A DNA stretch of 64,000 bases from an uncultured virus (IMG/VR IMGVR_UViG_3300035497_000625) (IMGVR_UViG_3300035497_000625); one strand, 5' to 3'; positions 3,596 through 61,959 are shown, numbered from the stretch's first letter. Numbers and translations are program-made. Notes: generated by a model not told the origin, from the letters alone.

Positions 3596-4075
3596 ATGAG
3601 TAAACATTATGTATGTTATTGTGATGGCGCGGCAACGATGGTTAAGCGTAATGGTGAATATCATAAAGGAGCGGGAGGTTATGGTGCTATCTTAATTGAT
3701 AGCGCCGATAATCAAATTATTTGTGAAAAATCAGAAGGAATGAAAGTAACTACTAATAATGAACAAGAATTATTAGGTATATTAAATGGAATAAAAATGT
3801 ATTTAGAAAGAAAACAAGACAATGACACGCTTTGCATCTGTTCTGATAGTGCTTATTCCATTAATTGTATAACTGTTTGGAGTAAAAAATGGAAAGCTAA
3901 TGGATGGAAAAAGAAAGGCGGCGAGATTAAAAATTTAGAATTGATTAAACAAATCTACGATTATTTCCTAGAATATGATATAACCTTTCAAAAAGTTAAA
4001 GGACATCAAGGAGTAAAATTTAATGAATATGTTGACCAATTAGCAGTGGCGGCGAAGAAATCTTTTCTCTATTGA
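3596..4075 (+). CDS. rnhA: Ribonuclease HI
   Basis: YCDGA, TTNNEQEL, SDSAY, W..NGW, KVKGHQG..FNE.VD.LA. Confidence 0.93.
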   Translation: MSKHYVCYCDGAATMVKRNGEYHKGAGGYGAILIDSADNQIICEKSEGMKVTTNNEQELLGILNGIKMYLERKQDNDTLCICSDSAYSINCITVWSKKWKANGWKKKGGEIKNLELIKQIYDYFLEYDITFQKVKGHQGVKFNEYVDQLAVAAKKSFLY

Positions 4076-16226: not shown

Positions 16227-17288
16227 AAGAGATAGTCTGGCCCTAACACATCTAATCTATTTTATTAATAGAGGTTAAGAAGATAAATCTTAGCTAACGA
16301 GGGAGTCTGAACGTTCTCGTAATCCGTTTTTCTTAAAGTTAAGGCTTAGGAAAACTACTTCAAGAATAGAAGATAATCTCGTGAGTTACTCAATAGTCAC
16401 TCACGTTATATTAGGAGTGATTTTATGATAGGAATTTATAAATTTACAAATAAAATTAATGGACATAGTTATATTGGACAAAGTATTGATATTGAAAAAC
16501 GTAGAAAAACACATATACAACGAGCTTTTTGGAATGTTGAAAGTAATAAAGAATATGAAAAAACGTTCTATCGTGCTCTTCGTAAATATGGTACAGAAAA
16601 TTTTGATTTTGAAGTATTAAAAACTTGTCCACAAGAAGAATTAAACGATTGGGAAATATATTATATAAAGTTATATGATACTTATAAACATGGTTACAAT
16701 GAAGACGAAGGTGGTAATATGGTTCTTCGTATTCAAGATGGCGAAAGGCATCCACGACATAAATTATCTGAAGCTGATGTATATAATATTCGTGAAGCAT
16801 ATAATAAGCATCAGATAAAAGATGAGGTGTATGCACAATATAAAGATAAAATTGGACCAAGTGGATTTCATAAAATTTGGAATGGTGATACTTGGACAAA
16901 GGTACATATGGATGTTTTCACCAAAGAAAATATAGCTTTTCATACTTGGATGAGGAATAGCCACCCTGGAAAAGGATCTGGTCGAAGACTTAGTATAGAG
17001 GAAATACGAGAAATTCGACGTAGATCTTCATCCGAAACTTTAGATGAATTATACCAAGACTTTAAAGATAAAGTAACTAGAGAAGTGTTTAAAAGAATTT
17101 ATAATAGGAAAACCTATATTGAAATTGAGTAACTTGTATCGGCCATCCCTAAGGTTGAAATGCTGGGGAGTAGGGACGTTATTAATACACGTCTTGGTTT
17201 TAGGAAACGAAGCCAATGAGAACCGAAACGATGTGCTGTTTTTACAGTAAGAAATGGTCAGTACCATTAGAAATAATGGAGTAATACG
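16227..17288 (+). mobile_element. Group I intron in gyrB carrying a GIY-YIG homing endonuclease
   Basis: Exon ends in U pairing with GCCCU (P1); P3 CACATC/GATGTG; P7 GGCCA/TGGTC; terminal G 17288; splicing restores RLKG-LGE. Confidence 0.9.
16425..17132 (+). CDS. Intron-encoded GIY-YIG homing endonuclease
   Basis: MIGIYKFTNKING.SYIGQS, GYN, C-terminal GERHP..KLSE..V..IR DNA-binding repeats. Confidence 0.9.
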   Translation: MIGIYKFTNKINGHSYIGQSIDIEKRRKTHIQRAFWNVESNKEYEKTFYRALRKYGTENFDFEVLKTCPQEELNDWEIYYIKLYDTYKHGYNEDEGGNMVLRIQDGERHPRHKLSEADVYNIREAYNKHQIKDEVYAQYKDKIGPSGFHKIWNGDTWTKVHMDVFTKENIAFHTWMRNSHPGKGSGRRLSIEEIREIRRRSSSETLDELYQDFKDKVTREVFKRIYNRKTYIEIE

Positions 17289-38771: not shown

Positions 38772-39682
38772 TTAACAACAACCGCAACTATTGTTATTAT
38801 TGAATGTACCGTTGCCGCCAAATCCACCTAGAGGGGCAGACATATAAGGACTTTGAACCAAATAAGCTGGGCGTGCAACAGGTTGTAGTTGATTAATTAT
38901 ATTGCTAGTTTGAGCTTGCTGTGATAGTTGGAAATTAGCAGATTGTAATTGATTCCTTAGAGCATCCATCTCAGATTGAACTAGATGGTTGATGATTCTA
39001 TCAGTATTTTTATCTGCATTTGAGATTATGTCACAAGTGGATTGAGCTAGAGCATACTTTAGATTTTCCTGTCCGTTCTGTACGCCGCAGAATCCTTGTT
39101 GCATTGTATTTTGGATACCATTAAATGATGTTTGATTGTTAAAGTTGGATTGCATTATGGATTCTCTTGTTTCACAACAGCAATCTTTCATATTATAGTT
39201 AGTTTGTGCTAGTGCACTTTGTACTCCGTTAAAGCCTTGATTCATTGCGTTTTGAGTGCAATTGAAACCTTGATTTAAAGTGCTTTGGATTCCGTTAACA
39301 CCTTGATTAATTGACATTTGTAGTGAATCGGAATTTTGGTTAATAGCATTTTGAATATCAAACTGACCTCTTACATTTGATACTTCATTATTATAAAAAC
39401 CATTCTGCATTTGTGATCCTAGACCAGCGATTTCATTACTTGTTGTATAGAAACCTTGGCAAAGACCATTTTGAACTCCTCTAACACCATTTTGTAGGTT
39501 ATTAAAGTTAAAAGCATCAGTTACTCCTTGCTGTGTAGCTGGAGTGCAACAAGCATTATATCCATTGTTGCCGCCTAAATTAGCTGGAATAACTACTGTG
39601 TTAGTACCTTCGTTACCTCCGTTATTGTTGCGATTGCCGCCCCAACCTGCAAAAGCAAAGAATAGGATTAAAATGATGACCC
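38772..39682 (-). CDS. GW/Asn/Gln-rich CCC-motif protein, exon 2 (spliced 337 aa)
   Basis: Frame stays open upstream of the track ORF: WVIILILFFAFAGWGGNRNN...ACC...DCCCETRE...SCGCC. Confidence 0.82.
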
Positions 39683-40442
39683 CAAATTGTTATCATATAA
39701 GTTTTTTATCTTATATTTCTATTACTTTCTATTCGTAATAGTTCAGCATAACTTTTCAACTATTTAATTTTTCCATGTCTTATAATTTTTAATATCATTA
39801 ATGGTATGAATTGAAACATTATATAAATCAGCCAATTCTCGACTAGAATGTGTATTATCAGCTCTAATATAATCAACTTGCATTTGATTTAATTTAGACC
39901 AAGGACAATCTTCTCCTTGTAAATGTAACTTATTTTTTATTGCATGATCTCTATTTTCTTGATTTGTTACCCATTCTAAATTTTCTACTGAATTATTATT
40001 TTTATTACCATCCTTATGATTTACCTGTTCCTTATTCTCTGGATTTGGAATATATTTTTCAGCTACTAATCTATGAATAAAATATCGCTTACCACAAAGA
40101 TTAACTCTTAAATATCCTTTACTATTTGGTTGAGGTTTTAAGATGTGATTGTTCCTACTATTTATAACTTCTCCAGTCTTAGTAATAATATATTCATCCA
40201 TTGTCATTGATTTTTGTGACATAGAATCCACTCCTTTTTTTATTTTTATTATAACATATTTTTATTAAGGAGTCAATAATTAAATAGTGTCGCGGCCTCG
40301 TGGGAGTGTTATATCTTTTCAACTCCTATGCGTTGTCCCTGACTTAATTCTATTAAGCCTTCGGTTCGGATTAGCATTTCAGCCTTCCCGCTTAATTCCG
40401 CGATTATTCGATATAAGTCACCTTATAAAGTGGCAGGTTTCT
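39683..40442 (-). mobile_element. Group I intron (760 nt) with HNH endonuclease
   Basis: P1 UGGU/GCCA with U.G; P3 TCGCGG/CCGCGA; P7 GCATA/TATGC; terminal G 39683; splice gives GA-W-W-VII. Confidence 0.88.
39764..40231 (-). CDS. Intron-encoded HNH homing endonuclease
   Basis: GYLRV.L, IHRLVA..YIPNP, VNHKDGNK.NN...NLEW, C-terminal HTH. Confidence 0.9.
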   Translation of the reverse strand: MDSMSQKSMTMDEYIITKTGEVINSRNNHILKPQPNSKGYLRVNLCGKRYFIHRLVAEKYIPNPENKEQVNHKDGNKNNNSVENLEWVTNQENRDHAIKNKLHLQGEDCPWSKLNQMQVDYIRADNTHSSRELADLYNVSIHTINDIKNYKTWKN

Positions 40443-40545
40443 ACCATGCACCATTTGCTCCACCAAAAGTACCGTCTGTGTTTTGTGTACCATTCTTGTT
40501 CTGTAATGCTAAAGCATCAGCAACTGATAGTCCGTTTTCTCCCAT
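40443..40545 (-). CDS. GW/Asn/Gln-rich CCC-motif protein, exon 1
   Basis: AGGAGG RBS; MGENGLSVADALALQNKNGTQNTDGTFGGANGAW+T. Confidence 0.82.
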
Positions 40546-40595
40546 AAAAGATTCCTCCTAAAAAATAATATAGTATTTATTTAATTGTTAAAGGC

Positions 40596-40838
40596 TTATT
40601 GCAATAAGGACATAAAATTATTAAATTCAGTATCAAAGTTTTTTCCTTGTTTTGCAAATACGTCTTCAGCAACTTTAGTTAAGCTTGTCATATCGCCTGA
40701 TTCGGCATATCCAATTAATTCATTAATCATTGGATCATTAATGTTATTGTTTTTAATCATTGACATTACTAATTCCTGTGGATTTCTGCCTTTTAATAGG
40801 CCAACTAATTCCATAGGATTCATATTAAAATTTATCAT
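40596..40838 (-). CDS. Hypothetical protein (cassette gene 2, NPM..NPQ..DPM repeats)
   Basis: ATGA overlap with the upstream stop, GGAGG RBS. Confidence 0.7.
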   Translation of the reverse strand: MINFNMNPMELVGLLKGRNPQELVMSMIKNNNINDPMINELIGYAESGDMTSLTKVAEDVFAKQGKNFDTEFNNFMSLLQ

Positions 40839-41311
40839 AATTGCCAATCTCCTCCCTTGCTATTAGGGGTTGCATTAGTTTGTTGTACTGGTGCGGCTTG
40901 ATTATTTTGATTTATGACCGCCTGTATACCATTTACTTGCTCTTCTAATTTTAAGAAACGATTGTTATATTGTTCAAATTGTTCATTAAAATTAATTTGT
41001 GGTGTTTCTGGAGTTTTGGTTACTTCCTTTTGATTAGTATTTTCATATGGAGTTATTTTATAAGCCCAAAACATTGGATTTCCATTTTGCATTGTTTTTA
41101 TATACATAAAACCCTCTTGCATACACAATGCTACTGAAACACCAGCGCTAGTAGGAACATTTGCAACTTCAAGCGTTGAATTTATATAATAAACGTTACC
41201 TTGTGGTTGTGGAAATAAAGGTTGAACGTTTTGTTGTTGTTGAAATTGCATTTGTTGCATATTTGGTTGGTTATAATAGTTTTGACTATTATTTGGATAA
41301 TTATATGCCAT
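40835..41311 (-). CDS. Asn/Gln/Tyr/Pro-rich hypothetical protein (cassette gene 1)
   Basis: GAGGTG RBS; MAYNYPNNSQNYYNQPNMQQ... low-complexity N-terminus. Confidence 0.75.
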   Translation of the reverse strand: MAYNYPNNSQNYYNQPNMQQMQFQQQQNVQPLFPQPQGNVYYINSTLEVANVPTSAGVSVALCMQEGFMYIKTMQNGNPMFWAYKITPYENTNQKEVTKTPETPQINFNEQFEQYNNRFLKLEEQVNGIQAVINQNNQAAPVQQTNATPNSKGGDWQL

Positions 41312-41390
41312 TTTTCTCACCTCTCTATCGTTCTATATTATAAGTAGGAACTGAGAAAAAAGTTTTGAGATTTTCCTTTTGGAAAAAAAG

Positions 41391-51269: not shown

Positions 51270-54200
51270 TTATTTACGAAGGATAACAGAAGATCCAATT
51301 GGATTAGATGCTTCGTTAATACGTTCTTCCATTAAGTCTAACATTGATTCTACATCGTAATCACTTGAAATTGATTCTATGTTAAGATTGATACTAACAG
51401 TTCCTCCTGTATATGATGTGTTGGAGTTATTGGTTACGTTATTGAGAGTTGAGGAAATGTTGGATATAGGAGATTCTGTTTGGTTAACTAGTGGAGTTGA
51501 AAGATTCATTGAACGTAGTGCTTGAGCTAATGCTGCGATGTTACTTGTATCTTCTGGGTCTAAGAATGCTTCTGGTTCTGATTTTGTACCATCTACCCAA
51601 GCTGGACCAGTAAAGTCTACCATACCACCTGATGCGTAATGTTTTACAGAAAGATTTTTTCCTTGAGAACTTAAATACTGTGCATTAGAATTGATAAAAT
51701 CTTGTGCCTCTTGCTCACTAGTAAACCAGTTTTCATTACTAAGAGGAGTACCAGAAGCTTCTAAACTATGTAGGCTTTCCAAATCATCTTTTCCATTAAC
51801 ACTAACGTAATATCGTTCTGAAGCTTCGGACATCCTTTGATTTTCTAAATCTTGTATATACTGCACACAATTGTTCTGTAATTGACGAATTTGTTCATCA
51901 ATACCAGATATTACAGTCGCAGCATCTGTACCTAATCCTTTCAATGCTTCATCTAAATTTTGAGTAGCAGTATCAAGATCTGCTTGAGCTGTTGACAAAT
52001 CTTGTTCTGCAGTGGTTAATGCTTCTAAAGTAGTCGACTCTGTATCATAAGCATCTTTAACTGCTTGTGCTCTAGTTTCTGCAGCTTCTTGTGTTTTTGT
52101 AGTCACGTCATCCAAAGCTTCTTGATAAGCAGTTTGCATTTTTACTAAATTTTCTTCAGCATTAGTAACTGTTTCTTGTGCAGATTCAATAGCTGTTTGA
52201 GCTGTTTCTATAGCCTCATCTCTAGCAACTACACCAGCTTCTAGCACTTGGTTTCCTACTTCAGTACTAATATTTAATGTTGTAAGTATTTCATTAACAC
52301 TATCCACATCTGCTTGAATTGCATCTGTAATGCTACCTCCAACATCAGCTAATACTTGTTGAACAGCTTCAAGACTAATAGCATTTGTATAATCAGTTTC
52401 AGCTTCTTGTGCATATTGAACTTGAGCTTCAGTACTCATGTCTTGAACAGATGAATCATTGCTCATAAACCATTCAACAGCATCAGCAGAATCTGTCCAT
52501 CCCTGAATAATTTCATTAGCTTGAATCCACCAATCAGTAGTTTCCATCAAAGCGTTTAAATATTCAATTTCTTCTTCTCTTGCCTTTTGTTGAGTTTCAT
52601 ACATTTCTTGCATAGAGGAAATTAAATTATCAACTTCTTTATCAAGTAATGATTGACGAGTGTTTTCAACTTCATCCTCAAGTGTTGCAACTTCTTTTTG
52701 ATTAGCTCCAGAGGTATCTCTTGACATTAAAGATAATTTCTTTTCTTTTGTTGCTAATTCTTCATATTGACTTGCTTGATCTCTTAAATCACGTTGTTTC
52801 TGAATTGCATCCTGTAGAGCACTGATATAATCATCATCTGCCTCTTTTAAATTATCATATTTATCTTGTACTGCATCTATCTCTGCTTGAGCATTTTCTT
52901 TTAAAATTTTAACTACTTTATCTTGAGTTGATATATAATTTTTTAATGCTGTTGTATAATAGTTCTCCCATTCATCTTCAAGAGCTTCCATTTCTTCAGT
53001 TGCAGTTGCCATTGAGTCTACTTCTTTATTATATTCTGCTTGTAATTTTACTAATGCATCTTTAATAGCATCACTTGCATCTGCATTTTCAAGAGCACTG
53101 GTGTCAAGCATCATTCGTCCATCAACAGTGAATTGAACTGAATCACGAACATTGGCATATGCGTCATTACTATAAAGGTCAGATAACATATTATCTAAAC
53201 TTTGTTGTGTAGATTGTTTTTCTGCTTCAAGTAAATTCATTTTTTCTTTTTGTGCCGCAATATAGGCTTCTGTACTAGAAACCATACTATCCAAATCTGA
53301 AGCATCTTCCATATTTGATTTTAAGGTTTTTAAACGAGTATTTAATCCAGTTAACATTTGATTTGCTGAATCTAATCGTTCAAGGCCGCTATCCCAATCA
53401 GCAGAACCATGAATTGCTTCATATAAATCTTCTTGAGCTTCTGCAAGTTTTTCTTGGGCATCTGCTAAAGTATCATACGCATCTTGTAATGATTTTAAAG
53501 CACTCTCTGCAGCTTCTTCTGCTTCTTTAATCGTTTTAGCTTCTTCTTCATATGCATCAGCAATAGCTTTTTCTCGTACTGCTGCTGCATTGTCTGCTGC
53601 TTCTTTTGCTTCATCATATGCTTCTTGTTTTTCTTTTAAAGTTTTTTCCGCTTCATCTACTGCATCTTGTGCCTCTTGAATTGTTTCTTTTATTGCTTCA
53701 AGTAGTGAAACTTGATTTTGAAATTCTAATGAGATTTCTTTTTCTGCCTCTTCTGTTCGTTCTGCAATTTGATCTGTTAAAGTCGATTGTTCTTTTAGTA
53801 ACTCAGTTTTTTCTTCTTCTAATTCAGTAGTATCCATACCTAATTTTTTATAATTTGCTATTTTATTATCTAATTCTTGAATTTGAGATGTTACAGTATT
53901 TAAACGTTCTTGTTCAGTTCCTAATTCTTTTTTCAATGCTTCTTCATTTGTTGCAATTGTTTCTGAAAATAGATTTTGCACTTTCTCCATTTTAATTTCA
54001 AATTTACCAGTATCAATATCTAATTCATACACATCACTTAATCCAGCTTCATCGAGAGTGTTTAATTGTTCTCTAGTTAAGCCAATAGACGTATCAATCT
54101 CATCCATTATTGAAGTAATTGTATCAGCTTGAGTAACCATTGTTTCTCCTGCTTCTTTTGCTGATGTGATTAATGTATTAAAAGCAGTTGCTGATCCATA

Positions 54201-57200
54201 TTCAAATGAACCTACTAAATCATTAATATCTCCAAACACTGATTTAACTTTTTCTAAAGCTTCATTAAAACTAAGAGCACCACTTGAATCTGTCATTAGC
54301 TGTTCGGCCAAGTCTTCCATTGTTTCTTCTACATTTAAAGGATTCACTTCGTCCCAGTTAACATTTGCATTTAATATCAAATCTAATTCATTTTCTGATA
54401 ATACACTATCCTCGTCATTTAATATATTAGTCAACATTGTTTGAAGTTTTTCTTTGGCTTGTGCTTGAGCTTCATCTCCAGTAACATTATTAGCAATAAA
54501 ATTGGACATTGTTGAGATAGTTGTAGGATCAATTTGAGTAAAAAGATCCGCCCACATACCCTGGCCTTGATCTCTAAGAGCATCTCCAGCAGCTTCAAAA
54601 TCTCCATTTTTTATTGCATCAGTAAAAGCAGTTGCTGCATCTTCTGACGTAAATAGATTAGAGAAAAATCCTCCAGTAATTTGTCCGCCTTCATTCTGTG
54701 TTAAAAACATATTTGCATATTGTTCATAATCAACAGTAGCTGCAGATTCAATATTGTCTTTATAAGCATCTCCATATTGACCTTCTAACTTTTGAATACT
54801 TTGCTGGTATTCATCAAGAGACATTGTGCTTATATTTTCACTTACTTCAGCAAAGCTATCAACTAATTGCTCTGGAATTTCTTCTGCTGCAGTTTGCATA
54901 TCATTTTCAATATACTGAGTAAATGTATTATCTCTAATAAGTTTTGCTAAATGTTCTGCATCTCCTCTCATGTTAACAAATGTATCTGCAGTTAAGCCTG
55001 TGATTGCTGATAATGTTTCTTCGGATAAGTTTACAGCTTCGGCCGCACTCGAAAAATCTTCTGCATTTATTAATGATGACATAAAATCTGAGCCTTCAGA
55101 GAGTGCTGCTGGATCTAAATTGGTTAATGATTTAAATTCTTCATTAATATATTGACTAGTTTTTTCTATTGCCTCTTGATCATCTTCAAGTAATAAACGT
55201 TGTAATTCAATAAGCTCATCAGCTGCATCAGTATTTGTTACCATACTAGCTTGCGTTGCTCCTACTGTTGCAGTAATATTACTTTGATAATTTTGACGTT
55301 GTGATTCTATATATCGTTGGTTAGACGCTTCATCTGCTTCATTAATAATGTCATCAATTCCCTCTTGCTCGTCTAATATTTGTTGATAAAATTCTAACGC
55401 ATCTTGATTATTATCTAAAATTTGTTGCAGCACATAAGAAAGATCAACTTCTCCTTGTGTACCATGCTCTTTATAATAATCGTCAAATAATTTTAACATT
55501 TGATTAATTTCATCAGCTTTATTATCATCTGCTGCTATACGACCTGAGGCAATGGCGGTCGAATAATTATCATTTATTGCTTGACTAATACTATCATAAT
55601 CTGTTAATCCTTGATTGATAACATCTTGTAAAGCTGAAAAATCAGCAGAAGTACCTGTCTCATAAATATCTGTAGTGTATGTAGTATCTCCATTCTCATT
55701 AGTCTTAGTATAAAAACCGCCTTCTAATTGAAGTTTAGCTTTTTGATTTTTTGTTTTTTCAAGTTCATATTCTTCTGCATTTACATTACTCTGAGTGCCA
55801 AGAGCTATTGCTTGAGATAATTCCGCAATTTCTTTTGCATCTTCTAATTGCTGATTCCACAAATCTTCACTAATAATTAATTTATTATTCATTTCATCAT
55901 AATATGCAACTGTATCTGAATATTCATCATTTATTGTTTCAACTAACTCATTGTATCTTTCTTGTTCATCCTCAGTTAAACTAATTTTATTATTTAATTC
56001 ATCCCATTCTTTTTTTACACTCTCCATTGTTGAAACTGCTTGTTGATCTGCTTTTGCTGTAGATGTAGTAGTTTCGGCAGCTTCTTTTAAATCTTCAAGA
56101 TTTTTTTTCATAGTTGAAATCTCTGCATCTAAGCTCTCAGATAAAGAAGTCCATACATTGTTTTTCTTATAATAATTATAAATTAGTGCACCTAAGCCAA
56201 CAACTACAACTGTTCCTATTGCTATAGCAGCTAGAGCGGCTGGATTTGATAATATAGGAATAAGTGTAGGGATAAACGCGGCGAGTTGCTTTCCTAAAAA
56301 AGATATAAATTGAGGAACTAATTGAGAAATCATGCCTGTTACTAAAGTTAAACCAGTTGTCTTTAAAGCAGTTGAAAAATCTCCTGTAGAAATAGCAGTA
56401 ATAATTCCACTAGTAATTGCAGATCCTATTGAAGATTTAAATGCACCTTTTATTGCACTTGCTGCACTATTAACTACTGGACCAAGAGCACCAAAAGAAT
56501 TACTTAAATTTTGAGTTGCTTGCTGTAATTGTTGACTAGATGCTGACCCTTCTCTGACTGCTTGAATATATTGTCGTAAAGCTGTAGTCGTATTTTCCTC
56601 ATTAGTTATATCTTGCTGAAGAACTACTCCCATTTGTTGTAATTTTGCAACGAACTGATCATATGCTGCAGTGCCAGCAGTAAGTTCTTCAGTTCCACCC
56701 ATTTTTTTATATAATTCATTTACTTCTGTTTCTGTTAATTCCGTAACAGAACCAACTTGTTGTAATTTAGTATAAAAATCAGTTAATGCTTGAGCAGAAA
56801 TAGGCTGATCAGCTAAAGAAAAAAGATTCTTTTGTCTATTAGTTAATTCTAAAAATTGAGTATTAATTTTTTCCATTTGTTGATTAAATGCGCTTGTTGC
56901 TTGTTGAAGATTTTGCTCTAATTGTTTTTTTGCATTATCAGAAAAAATTAAACTACTAACTTTTGTTCCTATCTTACTTTTGCTTAAAACTGTCGCTATT
57001 CCTGTATTAATAGAATTACCAGCTGTACTTGCAGCTGTTTTAAATGCAGGAGTAACCTGTTTGTTAAAAACATCTGCTACAGTTCCAATATTTGTTTTCA
57101 TGCCATTAATAAATTGAGAAACAAAGTTTTTACCAACTGTTAAGCCGATTACAGCAATAAATGCCAAATCTTTTATACTAATATCTTTTTTAATCCCACT

Positions 57201-57678
57201 TAATAATTTATTACCTAAATCTAAAGCATCTTTATAAACATCCTGATCCAATAACGAAACTCTTAATTGCTCCCAAGTATTTTGAATTTGTTCAATTTTA
57301 TATTGAACAGTATCTTGATATTTATTAAATTGTACAGTTGATTGTCCAGTTGACTCATAAGCTGTTGCTTGTAATTCAAGTGTTCTATCATAATCACTCA
57401 TCATTGCAATAAATCTCGACTGTTGCCTACTACCCGCCGCGGTAGTTGCGATATAACGTTGAGTATTTCTATCAAGTGTATCCCATTTTTCTGCCAATTC
57501 AAGAAAGACATCATCTAGATCTCTAAATTGACCACTAGCATCTTTAATTGAAATACCAACAGACTTTAATGCTGTATCTACATCATTATAATCAAGATCA
57601 TCAAATTCACTATCTGCTGCAGATACATTTTCTTTTAATTCTGTAAATCTTGCAATGATGGTTTTCATTGCTGTACCG
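51270..57678 (-). CDS. Tail tape measure protein, exon 4
   Basis: GTAMKTIIARF, W..LDRNTQRYIA...AGSRQQSRF, TM region, long coiled coils, YASGG.VDFTGPAWVDG. Confidence 0.9.
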
Positions 57679-58579
57679 CAATATCTTCAAATTATAAATT
57701 TTGCTCTATAGCTTTTTTCGCCAATTGATATTTTCTATCTAAATAGATAGAAGCATCATCATATAACATATGTAAAATTTTATTTACTTCTCGTTTTCCA
57801 CTTACTACAAATTTTGGAACACTTCTATTTCTATCTAATTTCTTATTAATTTGCCATAAATTCATTACATAATTTAATATATCTTCTGTTCCAACCAAAT
57901 TAATTCGATATCTAATTGAATTAACACTATTTTTTTGTGGATAAATACTACCATCGCCATCAAATAATCCTCTGCTCCAATGAATTAATAACTCATTTGA
58001 CATTTGCATTTGAGGTGTTAAAGTTAACGATTTTTTTCTGTATAAACCTTGTTTTTCTAAATCTAAACAGATTTTTTGATCATATAACCTAAAAAAACGA
58101 TAAGGTTTATTTTGATTATTAATTTTATCTTTATATGGTGCATTTGTTTCTAAAAAGTTTTGAAATTTTACTATATGTTCTTTATCTTTGTCTGCCAATC
58201 CTAGAATTAATTCACCTCGTTCTGGATCAACATATCCGTCAGCGTATAAAAAACCTAGCCAATAAGCTTTTTCTTCTGAATCAATCTTCTCAAAAACATT
58301 TGAATTGCGTTCATAAATCATATTTAATTCTCCTTTAAATATTAAACTTATTAAATTTATAATTCTGCACATATAGTGCCTTTAGCTTCTTTTTGTTATA
58401 CTAAAGTTGAGACTGTCGCACGCCCATTGACATGGGCCTCTTTCACTCAGTCGTTCACGGTGCTTATTCGAGCAATCTCGATGAGCTTCCGCCCTGTTAT
58501 CCACTGCTGGATGTCCAAGTCAATTAGAAAGAGTTATTCAATGCAGTTTATGTATTATGCTGCAAGGACACCGTACTTG
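57679..58579 (-). mobile_element. Group I intron 3 of tape measure gene (901 nt) with LAGLIDADG ORF
   Basis: P1 ACAU/GUGU with U.G; P3 CTCTTTC/GAAAGAG; P7 GACTG/CAGTC; terminal G 57679; splice AT|C GGT. Confidence 0.88.
57692..58321 (-). CDS. Intron-encoded double-motif LAGLIDADG homing endonuclease
   Basis: AYWLGFLYADGYV and WSRGLFDGDGSI, YLDRKY; ATG 58321 follows AGGAG. Confidence 0.9.
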   Translation of the reverse strand: MIYERNSNVFEKIDSEEKAYWLGFLYADGYVDPERGELILGLADKDKEHIVKFQNFLETNAPYKDKINNQNKPYRFFRLYDQKICLDLEKQGLYRKKSLTLTPQMQMSNELLIHWSRGLFDGDGSIYPQKNSVNSIRYRINLVGTEDILNYVMNLWQINKKLDRNRSVPKFVVSGKREVNKILHMLYDDASIYLDRKYQLAKKAIEQNL

Positions 58580-58609
58580 ATGTTTTCAGGCGCTTCTTGA
58601 GTTGTTTCT
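58580..58609 (-). CDS. Tape measure protein, exon 3 (30-nt micro-exon)
   Basis: A GAA ACA ACT CAA GAA GCG CCT GAA AAC AT = (I)ETTQEAPEN(I). Confidence 0.85.
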
Positions 58610-58895
58610 CCTTTCTACCGTCTTTTTCAAGATACTTTAACACCTATAAGGTCGGAGTAGACTATACCATTATCCATTATTACTTGGATACCGCTTGGTA
58701 GTCGTTGAGGGCTTGAAATTAAATATTCCAATCCCTGCGGATTACCCAATCTTTACTATTGTTACTATACTGAGGTCATTACTCTCACCATATTATAAAA
58801 TACTTAGTAAGTAAAGCTCTAAGGGCTTTCCCGCATATTCACGGTTCAATATAATATTACTATTATAAGGGACTTTTGTGACTTAAGTCACGTTA
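58610..58895 (-). mobile_element. ORF-less group I intron 2 of tape measure gene (286 nt)
   Basis: Exon ends ATG AT (U); P3 ACCG/CGGT; P4 TGCGG/CCGCA; P7 GACTA/TAGTC; terminal G 58610. Confidence 0.85.
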
Positions 58896-59179
58896 ATCAT
58901 TTGAGTAATAAAAGCAGACGTAGTTTCAAAGTCCATACCTGCATTCGCAGCAATTGACGCTGTTTTACTCATAGCGTATGCTATACCATCAACGTCTGCC
59001 GCTGCGCTTGCAGCTAGAGATGAATAAACGTCTGTTACTCTTGAGCCTTCATCCATTTCCATATTAAATCCACGAAGTGCCGCTGTCATTTGTTCTGTTG
59101 CTGTACTAAAATCACTACCAGATAAAGTAGCCAATTTCATGGTATTGGTTGTCAAACTTAACGCTTCATTTGTATCCAA
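58896..59179 (-). CDS. Tape measure protein, exon 2
   Basis: LDTNEAL...MTAALRGFNM...VTDVYS.LAA...AMSKTASIA.NAGM.FE, TMP core domain. Confidence 0.88.
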
Positions 59180-60423
59180 CAATTTTCTTATTTTTAAAAA
59201 CGTTACTTTTTAAACTAGTTTATACTACTCTATATCTCTATAGAAGTTGAGACTATATCAAACCATAAAGGTATCACTACTTCGGATCACTTGATCCTAC
59301 ACAGTCCTTGACCGACTGTTAGTCGTTGAACTTTTTTCCTAAAATCAATAGGAAACTTAGCTGCTGATTTTCCAAATCTTTATATTATCACCATACCTTA
59401 TCTACAATCAGCCGCGAAATTATTACTAATTTCGTTTGGTAATAAAGATTTAAGGACCTTCCAGCAATCCAATGATTTTCAAGGGTTGGTAGGGAAGAAT
59501 TATATTTCTTCCCAATAAAATCCGCAACTCATTCCATGTCGCTTAGCTGCACTACTAATAGCAGCATAAGTGACACCATATTCTTTTGCGGCGGTAGTAA
59601 AACTTGGCCATTCTTTTATTAAATTATGGTTTTTGTCATATTGAGCAACTTTATGCTGACCTTTATGACCATTCTTTTGAGCATTTATCATATTTTCTGA
59701 ATTAGTAATACATCTTAAATTGCTCAAATCATTATTTGAACGATTACCATCTATATGATCAATTACATAATCTTTAGGAATTTCACCTTTAAAAGTTTCC
59801 CAAACTAATCTATGTGCAGAAAACATTTTGTCTTGTAAATTAAAACGGACATATCCATTACGCTTTGTGCCATAAGATAATTTTTTAGTTACACAATTTT
59901 TTATAACACCATTATTAGAAATTTCATATATACCTTCAAATCCTTTAAGAGGTCTCCATTCTACATTATCAACACTAACTTTAGTCACTGCATTAATTTT
60001 ATTCTTTTTTATTGGTTCTTCACACCATTGAAGATTATCAACATTATTATTATACTTATTACCATCAATATGGCTTACCATTGAATAATTATTAGGATTT
60101 GGTATGAAAGTTTCTGCTACTAAACGATGTACCATCACGCTTTTTGCTTTACCATTAATAGTAAGTTGTACATTACGATATTCATTTCTCGCTAGAGTTC
60201 CTTTTAATTCTCTCTTGGTTTTAAGATTTATAACTATGCCTTCTGTATTAATTGTATAGTCTGTTTCCTGTCCATCAATCATAATTCTTTTTGTTTCACT
60301 CATAATTTAATTCCTCCGATATATTATTTTATATTTTATACTAAGATCTCTTTCTTAGTATGTATATATTATATCATAGGATACAAAAATAGTCAATACT
60401 ATCCATTTTTATAATCTAGGTTT
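59180..60423 (-). mobile_element. Group I intron 1 of tape measure gene (1244 nt) with HNH ORF in the P1 loop
   Basis: Core lies after the HNH stop: TGCTG/CAGCA (P4), GTTCAACGACTA and ATATAGTC (P7), terminal G 59180; guide CCAACCCTTG complements the junction CAAGGG|TTGG. Confidence 0.82.
59500..60303 (-). CDS. Intron-encoded tandem HNH (NUMOD4/HNH x2 + NUMOD1-like) endonuclease
   Basis: VHRLVA..FIPNP..HIDGNK.NN..NL.W and AHRLVW..IDHIDGNRSNN.LSNL; C-terminal VAQYD...IKEWPS...AAK. Confidence 0.9.
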   Translation of the reverse strand: MSETKRIMIDGQETDYTINTEGIVINLKTKRELKGTLARNEYRNVQLTINGKAKSVMVHRLVAETFIPNPNNYSMVSHIDGNKYNNNVDNLQWCEEPIKKNKINAVTKVSVDNVEWRPLKGFEGIYEISNNGVIKNCVTKKLSYGTKRNGYVRFNLQDKMFSAHRLVWETFKGEIPKDYVIDHIDGNRSNNDLSNLRCITNSENMINAQKNGHKGQHKVAQYDKNHNLIKEWPSFTTAAKEYGVTYAAISSAAKRHGMSCGFYWEEI

Positions 60424-61959
60424 CCCTTGTTGGTAGAAAAGTGCACTCGATGCTATTACGTCTTTAGTAGATTGACCAAGTTCATTAGCCATTGCAGCAT
60501 AGTCACCATAGCTACTCCACATATCGCTAACATCATAATCAGTAACCATTGCTATAGAAGCAAAACTAGCATCCAATTCTGCTAAGTCTTGAGTCGTTGC
60601 TTGAATTTGTTGTTTAACTTGATTCCAAGCGTTACCAATGGACAAGATTTGAGTAACTCTATTTTTTAAATTATCAAAAGCGGCATTAATTTTTTCTTGA
60701 GCTGCAGATTCCTCTTTTTGTTGCTCAACAGATTTTTGAACAGCTGTGGTATACTCATTCATACTTGTAACGCCATTCTCTAATCCAGTCGTTATTGTCT
60801 CATTAGCTTCAGACGCTGCTTGATCTCTTGCTTGTTCTGCCGCCTGTACATTTGCTTCTGCAGCTGCTTGTTCACTCAATCTTTGATTAACAGTGGCAAG
60901 TGCTGCTTCTTGTTGTCTATACGTTTCAAGGTCAGCAGCTTCAGTCGATCCTTCAGCGGCATAATTAATACCATTTGCACTTGTTGAAGTATCAAAAGTG
61001 TGTTCAACATTCGTACTTGCATTTTCAGCCGCTTGTTGTACATCTTGTAAATCTGCAACAAACTGTTGAGTAAACTCTTCTTGATTTTCTATAATTGCGC
61101 CATAGCTAGAAAAAGTATTAATCAAATCTTGAATTGCAGTTTGAGTTTCTTTCGCTCCACTTGTAACATCTGATAAAGCTTGTTGATAAAGTTGAGTTGC
61201 TTCACTATTTGCTCTATCATTAAAAGTTGAATAATCGACGTGTCGTTGGTTGTCTTTTCTTGCCTTCCAGTCAGATTGTGCACCCTCTTCTGTATTACCA
61301 GTTAAACTTGGAAGGTTTGTACTAGTTCTTTGTTTACTAACTTTATAGTTTGATGAGCTTAAGTCAACTGTTTTAGTTTCAATTGCATTCTTTGCTGCGG
61401 CTTCTTCAGCTTCTTTTGTTTCTAAGTCATAGATTTCTTGACGAGTTTGACGTTCTTCTTCTAATAGACTATTGAATTTTTCTTGGTCACTAATACTTTC
61501 AGCTAGTTGTTTTGCTCTATCTTCTCCAACGCCTTCACTAGTAAATTTTGTTACTATCTGTTGATTTTGAAGTTGTTGAGTTGATTTAATTTCGTCTTTT
61601 AAACTTTGTAAAGCTTTTTGAGCATCTTTAACTTTTTCAATATATTCTTCTGGTGCTGTGTATTCTACTTTTTGACTAATTTTTTCTAGGTCTTGAGCAG
61701 TACGTTCATATAGAGAATTAAGTTTTGCAACGTCTTTATTATAATTCTCCATATCTTTTGTATTACTGAAACCTTCCTTAGCTTTTTTTGCTAATTGTTC
61801 AGCTTGTTTTTCAATTGCTTTAATTTGTGTATCGACATTTCCAAAAAGTTTTGTATCTGCTCCCTGAGATTCCATTTGAGAACGGATTTTCTTTAGAGAG
61901 GAGATTATTTCGGATGCATCGAACGTGCCTTTAAAGGCTATTGTTTGTGTAGTTGCCAT
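60424..61959 (-). CDS. Tape measure protein, exon 1
   Basis: Coiled-coil N-terminus ending ELD.....IAMVT...LG.ST.DVI..S.LFYQQG. Confidence 0.88.

Follow-up and report, generated by a model that had tools for sequence, protein, structure and literature searches.

A phage tape-measure gene intron with an apparent G-C pair in place of U.G at its predicted 5′ splice site

Group I introns of subgroup IA2, the phage type, carry two extra hairpins, P7.1 and P7.2, between P7 and the 3′ strand of P3 (P3′). The T4 td and Staphylococcus phage Twort orf142 introns are phage IA2-type introns with endonuclease genes, and the intron described here, in a phage tape-measure gene, shares with both of them the core words UCAACGACUA and GAUAUAGUC, a peripheral loop that holds an ORF, and a stop codon soon after the 5′ splice site; two hairpins are also predicted between its P7 and P3′. 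The td and orf142 introns, however, have U.G at the 5′ splice site and their ORFs in other loops, whereas the present intron has its ORF in the P1 loop. Its core words also match sequence in many phages, in gaps without annotation between the parts of split genes. A 1995 paper reportedly describes two group I introns with C.G at the 5′ splice site. Those introns reportedly resemble the present one in lying in a protein-coding gene, in having a Watson-Crick pair instead of U.G and in leaving little or no codon choice at the site; they differ in that the exon base is the pyrimidine C and the guide G is kept, whereas the present intron has a purine at the exon end and a guide base changed to C (U in a relative).

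A second group of natural exceptions consists of the Leu.3Cg introns of proteobacterial tRNA-Leu genes, 72 introns with C at position −1, the last exon base (Williams, bioRxiv 2020, 10.1101/2020.01.27.920355). According to the same preprint, 98.5% of calls combined U at −1 with a terminal G, no purine type was reported, and C-G at −1 inactivates the Tetrahymena intron (10.1101/2020.01.27.920355). In Leu.3Cg, as here, U is absent from −1 and splicing is presumed; but, as that source describes them, the base at −1 is a C paired with G and the host genes are tRNA genes. For the Anabaena intron system, a further study states that no circular RNA formed once T-G at the first pair had been replaced by G-T, and its authors regard a pyrimidine at the splice site as required (PMC12355055). 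Those engineered variants probe the same P1 position, and G-T gave no product there, whereas the present essential gene keeps G-C and, in the relative, the very G.U arrangement that failed there. Searches of the open-access literature gave no published natural intron with a purine at −1; the published natural exceptions that were found all have C at −1.

The gene is contained in a 64-kb window, by which we mean the whole stretch of DNA analyzed. It encodes a very long TP901-type tape-measure protein on the minus strand at 51270–61959, in four exons separated by three introns, of which the first is the subject of this study (Table 1). The tape-measure domain runs on across the first exon junction: the PF10145 (PhageMin_Tail) match in exon 2 begins with its first residue, L59179, at profile position 30, and uninterrupted homologues are colinear. 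Two sets of homologues were used to place the junction. Exon 2, used as a query against viral contigs, gave 24 loci, the window's own phage included, and all uninterrupted ones (21/21) read ...(F/Y)(Y/V)QQG-L..., the hyphen marking the junction; a profile search of viral contigs gave 34 loci, with QQG-L in 31/31 uninterrupted ones. The junction Gly codon in these 31 homologues was GGT in 19, GGC in 9, GGA in 3 and GGG in none. In the window, exon 1 ends in ...TTC TAC CAA CAA GGG, with G60424 as its last base, and exon 2 opens with TTG GAT ACA at 59179. Two registers restore QQG-L and both give an exon ending in G. The alternative register yields an identical mRNA with G60425 at the exon end, and its intron would end in U; only the register with cuts directly after 60424 and 59180 leaves a terminal intron G. 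Because the junction is fixed by the uninterrupted homologues and by this terminal G, the splice boundaries were set at 60424/60423 and 59180/59179, in agreement with the original prediction, which had placed a CAA GGG-TTG junction restoring YQQG-L at G60424 and G59180. As read from the sequence, the QQG-L protein is unobtainable from any 5′ splice site that ends in U.

Table 1. Features of the first tape-measure intron and its surroundings, in window coordinates
Feature	Position	Strand	Remarks
Tape-measure exon 1	60424..61959	-	512 codons, end ...FYQQG; from ORF list, with tail aligned to uninterrupted homologues
Group I intron	59180..60423	-	1244 nt; junction from homologues; core matches Rfam RF00028
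P1 5′ strand CAAGGG	60424..60429	-	Exon 1 ends in G60424 (position −1)
Stop codon of exon-1 frame	60409..60411	-	13–15 nt into intron
Promoter-like site TTGACT-17-TATAAT, TG extension	60368..60396	-	11/12 matches; upstream of HNH gene, P1 loop
HNH homing-endonuclease ORF	59500..60303	-	267 aa; HNH_3 PF13392 9.4e-29 and NUMOD4 PF07463 6.8e-14; P1 loop
Perfect 8-bp hairpin over HNH stop codon	59496..59517	-	Directly upstream of guide; Rfam model takes this hairpin for P1
P10 guide CCAA	59486..59489	-	Partner exon 2 UUGG 59179–59176
P1 guide CCCUUG	59480..59485	-	C59485 opposite G60424
J1/3 AAA and P3 5′ strand AUCAUUG	59470..59479	-	AAA 59479–59477; AUCAUUG 59476–59470; partner UAGUGAU 59279–59273
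Ribozyme core	59228..59467	-	RNAalifold and Rfam
P4	UUGCUGG 59467–61 / UCAGCAG 59367–61	-	P5, P6 next
J6/7 and P7	UCAACGACUA 59329–20 / UAGUC 59255–51	-	P7.1 next
P7.2 and P8	P7.2 59297–84; P8 59272–62	-	P9 after
Terminal G (omega G)	59180	-	Intron end ...AAAATTG
Tape-measure exon 2	58897..59179	-	LDTNEALS...AFITQMI; 3′ end per homology reading; PF10145 8.2e-17, TIGR01760 2e-09, homologues
Micro-exon	58580–58609	-	30 nt, ETTQEAPENI; between second and third introns
Third intron	57679–58579	-	901 nt; LAGLIDADG ORF 58372–57692; canonical sites: U at −1, terminal G

In-frame stops at conserved Gln positions of the tape-measure exons were observed in loci L005, L008–L012, L020–L022 and L024. The stop was TAG wherever the DNA was read in these relatives (e.g. 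L012, where Gln-TAG-Gly stands for the QQG end of YQQG). These stops suggest stop-codon recoding in phages related to that of the window; in the L012 phage, TAG appears to be translated as a sense codon. No in-frame stop occurs at Gln positions in those parts of the window's own copy that were read.

Assignment of the intron to group I was based on its match to an Rfam model, core helices with covariation, an omega G and the P1 and P10 pairings; the U.G of the group at the 5′ splice site was not found, G60424 pairing with C59485 instead. With the search confined to 381 nt, 59228–59517 (minus) matched RF00028 (Intron_gpI) at 54.7 bits, above the cut-off of 50 (E 2.3e-13). The model was unmatched in searches of the whole window and of 3.1 kb, presumably because of speed filters, and the narrower search superseded both. 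For comparison, the two introns of a related phage, L024, scored 48.3 and 47.7 bits. RNAalifold, run on the window intron and four related introns (n = 5), predicted 46 pairs, with compensatory changes in 23 of them, and recovered P4, P5, P6, P7, P7.1, P7.2 and P9, the two hairpins P7.1 and P7.2 being placed between P7 and P3′. Its elements follow in the order guide CCCUUG, AAA, P3, GA and P4, with no P2. P3 forms with 7/7 pairs in the window, and both L024 and a second related phage, L012, form the same pairing with other sequences. The omega G is likewise present in L012 and in both L024 introns.

The whole guide, CCAACCCTTG, occupies 59489–59480 of the minus strand, 11–20 nt past the HNH stop codon (59502–59500), and ends 3 nt upstream of P3. 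Its predicted pairing is contiguous, with 6 Watson-Crick pairs in CAAGGG/CCCUUG and 4 in UUGG/CCAA; the partner of A59486, the guide base next to C59485, is the base that opens exon 2. The guide 10-mer has a single exact occurrence in the 64-kb window, both strands considered. When the whole 1244-nt intron was scanned, the guide gave the best duplex both for the exon-1 tail (−9.2 versus −7.0 kcal/mol for the runner-up) and for the ten bases flanking the junction (−17.7 versus −7.7 kcal/mol). These results bear out the P1 of six pairs and P10 of four that had been proposed for 59489–59480, as well as the proposal that the last exon base is a G paired with C. The guide starts 934 nt past the 5′ splice site, close to the predicted distance of about 930 nt, and the promoter-like site and HNH ORF do lie within the P1 loop, as had been noticed.

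As the endonuclease ORF is in the P1 loop, P1 must form across these 934 nt. The hairpin over the HNH stop codon may either shield the guide against ribosomes or compete with it. A further 8-bp hairpin lies at 60339–60360 (minus), just past the promoter-like site, where the endonuclease mRNA probably starts. A search for HNH-protein relatives gave 10 loci, including the window's record, and this type of intron was absent from the other 9 (L027–L035). Elsewhere in the window, a GIY-YIG ORF (16425–17132) is flanked by gyrase B-like and gyrase A-like genes, and an HNH_3 ORF (39764–40231) lies amid short minus-strand ORFs (38772–41320); these may represent further introns or free-standing endonuclease genes.

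Homologous introns were found at exactly the YQQG-L junction in two other phages, L012 and L024, so that the base for same-site comparison was three introns and one relative of the window phage. The L012 intron is 454 nt long and holds ORF remnants only; the L024 intron (1257 nt) has a promoter and ORF arranged as in the window, including a site matching the window's promoter-like site. The comparison of homologous introns put forward as a check on the original prediction gave GGT with U.G in L012 (exon end ...CAG TAG GGT, guide GCUCUA), GGG with G-C in the window and GGA with A facing G at −1 in L024 (exon end ...CAA GGA, guide GCCUUG). Pairing at −1 is therefore not absolute, given the mismatch in L024. 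All three introns have the layout guide(6)-AAA-P3(7)-2 nt-P4, and in each the partner of −1 sits 18 nt upstream of P4; therefore, the canonical L012 intron calibrates the position. Between the window and L012, P1 shows double compensatory changes at −6 (C:G to U:A) and −4 (A:U to G:C). The homologous guides in same-site introns support the earlier suggestion of a natural non-canonical site, at which splicing would take place.

L024 has a second intron at 3706–4000, 93 nt downstream in the same gene, ORF-less and 295 nt long; it has a canonical U.G, with a P1 of 6 bp and a P10 of 6 bp. A scan of metagenomes (9 loci) gave no further same-site intron, and in the profile scan of viral contigs (34 loci) the intron was present only in the three records already known. 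Annotated phage records gave no near-identity match, nor did tblastn with the exon-1 tail, and the nearest whole-genome record, G001, lacks the tape-measure gene. An automated census of the −1 base was also carried out on 122 distinct related introns, fetched by core pattern, with candidates called by P1/P10 pairing and open frames across the junction. Its counts were discarded because the method had no specificity against scrambled controls, candidates being called at 53–57 real loci versus 55–63 scrambled ones.

Two further sources of sequence cover the site itself. G60424 and C59485 recur in a near-identical IMG/VR record, whose only mismatch in 8294 nt is at 61638. Run X2 contains a relative that is ~95% identical; its contig over 60367–60517 retains G60424, at a position away from contig ends, and its contig over 59085–59562 has U for C59485, giving a G.U in reverse orientation. 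Sequencing error, named at the outset as something that would undo the prediction, is therefore excluded by the recurrence of G60424 in the near-identical record and the X2 relative, and we regard this base as genuine and as persisting through ~5% divergence. Judged from the window, the X2 relative and L012 together, the guide partner of −1 is switched and the pairing retained: the partner is C or U where −1 is G, and G where −1 is U, as would be expected under selection for a paired −1 in a working intron. Between X2 and the window, the core (59180–59479) has 2/300 differences versus 9/95 in exon 2 (Fisher p = 7e-5), where third codon positions account for most of the differences; the conserved core could alternatively stem from a recent transfer of the intron rather than from purifying selection. 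The spacer between the HNH stop and the guide (59486–59499) is a hot spot in the same comparison, with 4 substitutions and 2 insertions in ~15 nt.

On this evidence, we consider it likely that the intron splices after G60424, paired as G-C with C59485, at the position that the sister intron marks with U.G.

Four runs were searched, at the level of contigs, for the 60424–59179 exon junction, and no contig contained it. Neither RNA run has contig coverage of 59302–60680, and the absence of a junction contig is uninformative either way. RNA run X1 contains perfect-match pieces of exon 1, together with a 220-nt contig (59082–59301), identical to the window, which crosses the 3′ splice site unspliced; this contig could be precursor RNA or DNA.

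The neighboring second intron, ORF-less and 277 nt long (58886–58610, minus), was recovered from two RNA runs, each of a different study, as a self-closing contig of 307 letters, that is, 277 plus a 30-letter overlap, in which G58610 is joined to U58886. The depth of this contig was 18.5 and 15.3 in the two runs, versus 3–5 for the exons, a 3–5-fold excess. The contig is an intron RNA circle formed in nature; therefore, the tape-measure pre-mRNA is made, and a ribozyme within it is active in nature. The circle closes after C58887, which is paired with G58882, and not after U. If it is a full-length circle, the 5′ splice site would lie after C58887, with the helix GUGAC/GUCAC and with NVT added to the protein. 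It is at least as likely, from homology, that the site lies after U58896 and that the circle is 9 nt short, having formed by attack after the G-paired C. That reading is based on homologues with MI-ETTQ at the junction and on the sister intron in L005 and L012, relative to which the second intron carries at its 5′ end an extra self-complementary insert, GUGAC UUAA GUCAC. Given the same homologues and sister intron, the view that the circle proves a C-G splice site was dropped. The original prediction also stated that the other five introns end their exons in U. Two of them, those in the same gene, were checked: the third intron has U, and the second has U by homology, but its circle closes after C.

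We propose that the intron is a mobile phage group I intron with an endonuclease gene under its own promoter in the P1 loop, and that the cut site would be set by position in the helix, at pair six from the AAA that joins P1 to P3. P10 (UUGG/CCAA) would start at the next guide base and align the 3′ exon. The ribozyme lineage would tolerate a purine at −1, which is probably made easier by the small number of tape-measure molecules needed per virion, for which slow splicing would suffice. The intron probably had U.G on entering the gene; either drift or homing into another allele would then have turned the third, synonymous position of the Gly codon into G, and a later change of the guide base from G to C in the window phage, or to U in the X2 relative, would have restored the pairing. 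More broadly, and tentatively, since we rate the case at somewhat below even, this would be a phage group I ribozyme lineage freed from dependence on U.G, which cuts by P1 position and accepts a purine at −1, whether in G-C, in the reverse G.U or even as A facing G. If that is true, nature has either re-tuned the wobble receptor of the catalytic core or can dispense with it.

The strongest competing explanation is that the intron is real but crippled by the purine at −1, the lineage splicing very poorly or the tape-measure gene decaying. Non-wobble pairs at −1 are harmful in experiments on other group I introns, the L024 intron has an outright mismatch there, and what the contigs offer is one that is unspliced at the 3′ site and none with the spliced junction. 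A defect of this kind nevertheless sits poorly with a guide base that has changed twice, to C and to U, each time to a base that pairs with G, and with a core far better conserved than synonymous exon sites. Moreover, all three exons have open frames and conserved protein sequence, and the phage was found in several data sets, RNA libraries among them. We regard this explanation as unlikely.

A true 5′ splice site elsewhere, ending in U, would give a protein with a small insertion or deletion relative to its homologues. U60418, 6 nt downstream, would stay in frame, and two in-frame readings coexist at the neighboring intron; yet no guide beside the core could pair with a site ending in U, U is absent from the exon strand of P1, the sole G of the P1 guide pairs with C60429, and the 10-nt guide fits the YQQG-L junction exactly, which makes a displaced site very improbable. 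A sequencing or assembly error at 60424 or 59485 has a negligible probability, since the near-identical record carries the same bases and the X2 relative retains the G well inside its contig.

Four natural variants at one insertion site (U.G, G-C, G.U and A/G) form a comparison set for the contribution of the wobble pair, and a check in vivo is feasible given two RNA data sets that contain the circle of the neighboring intron. That an essential phage gene retains a purine at −1, with a guide base that co-varies so that pairing is preserved, suggests a less strict U.G rule than the one drawn from mutagenesis of model introns.
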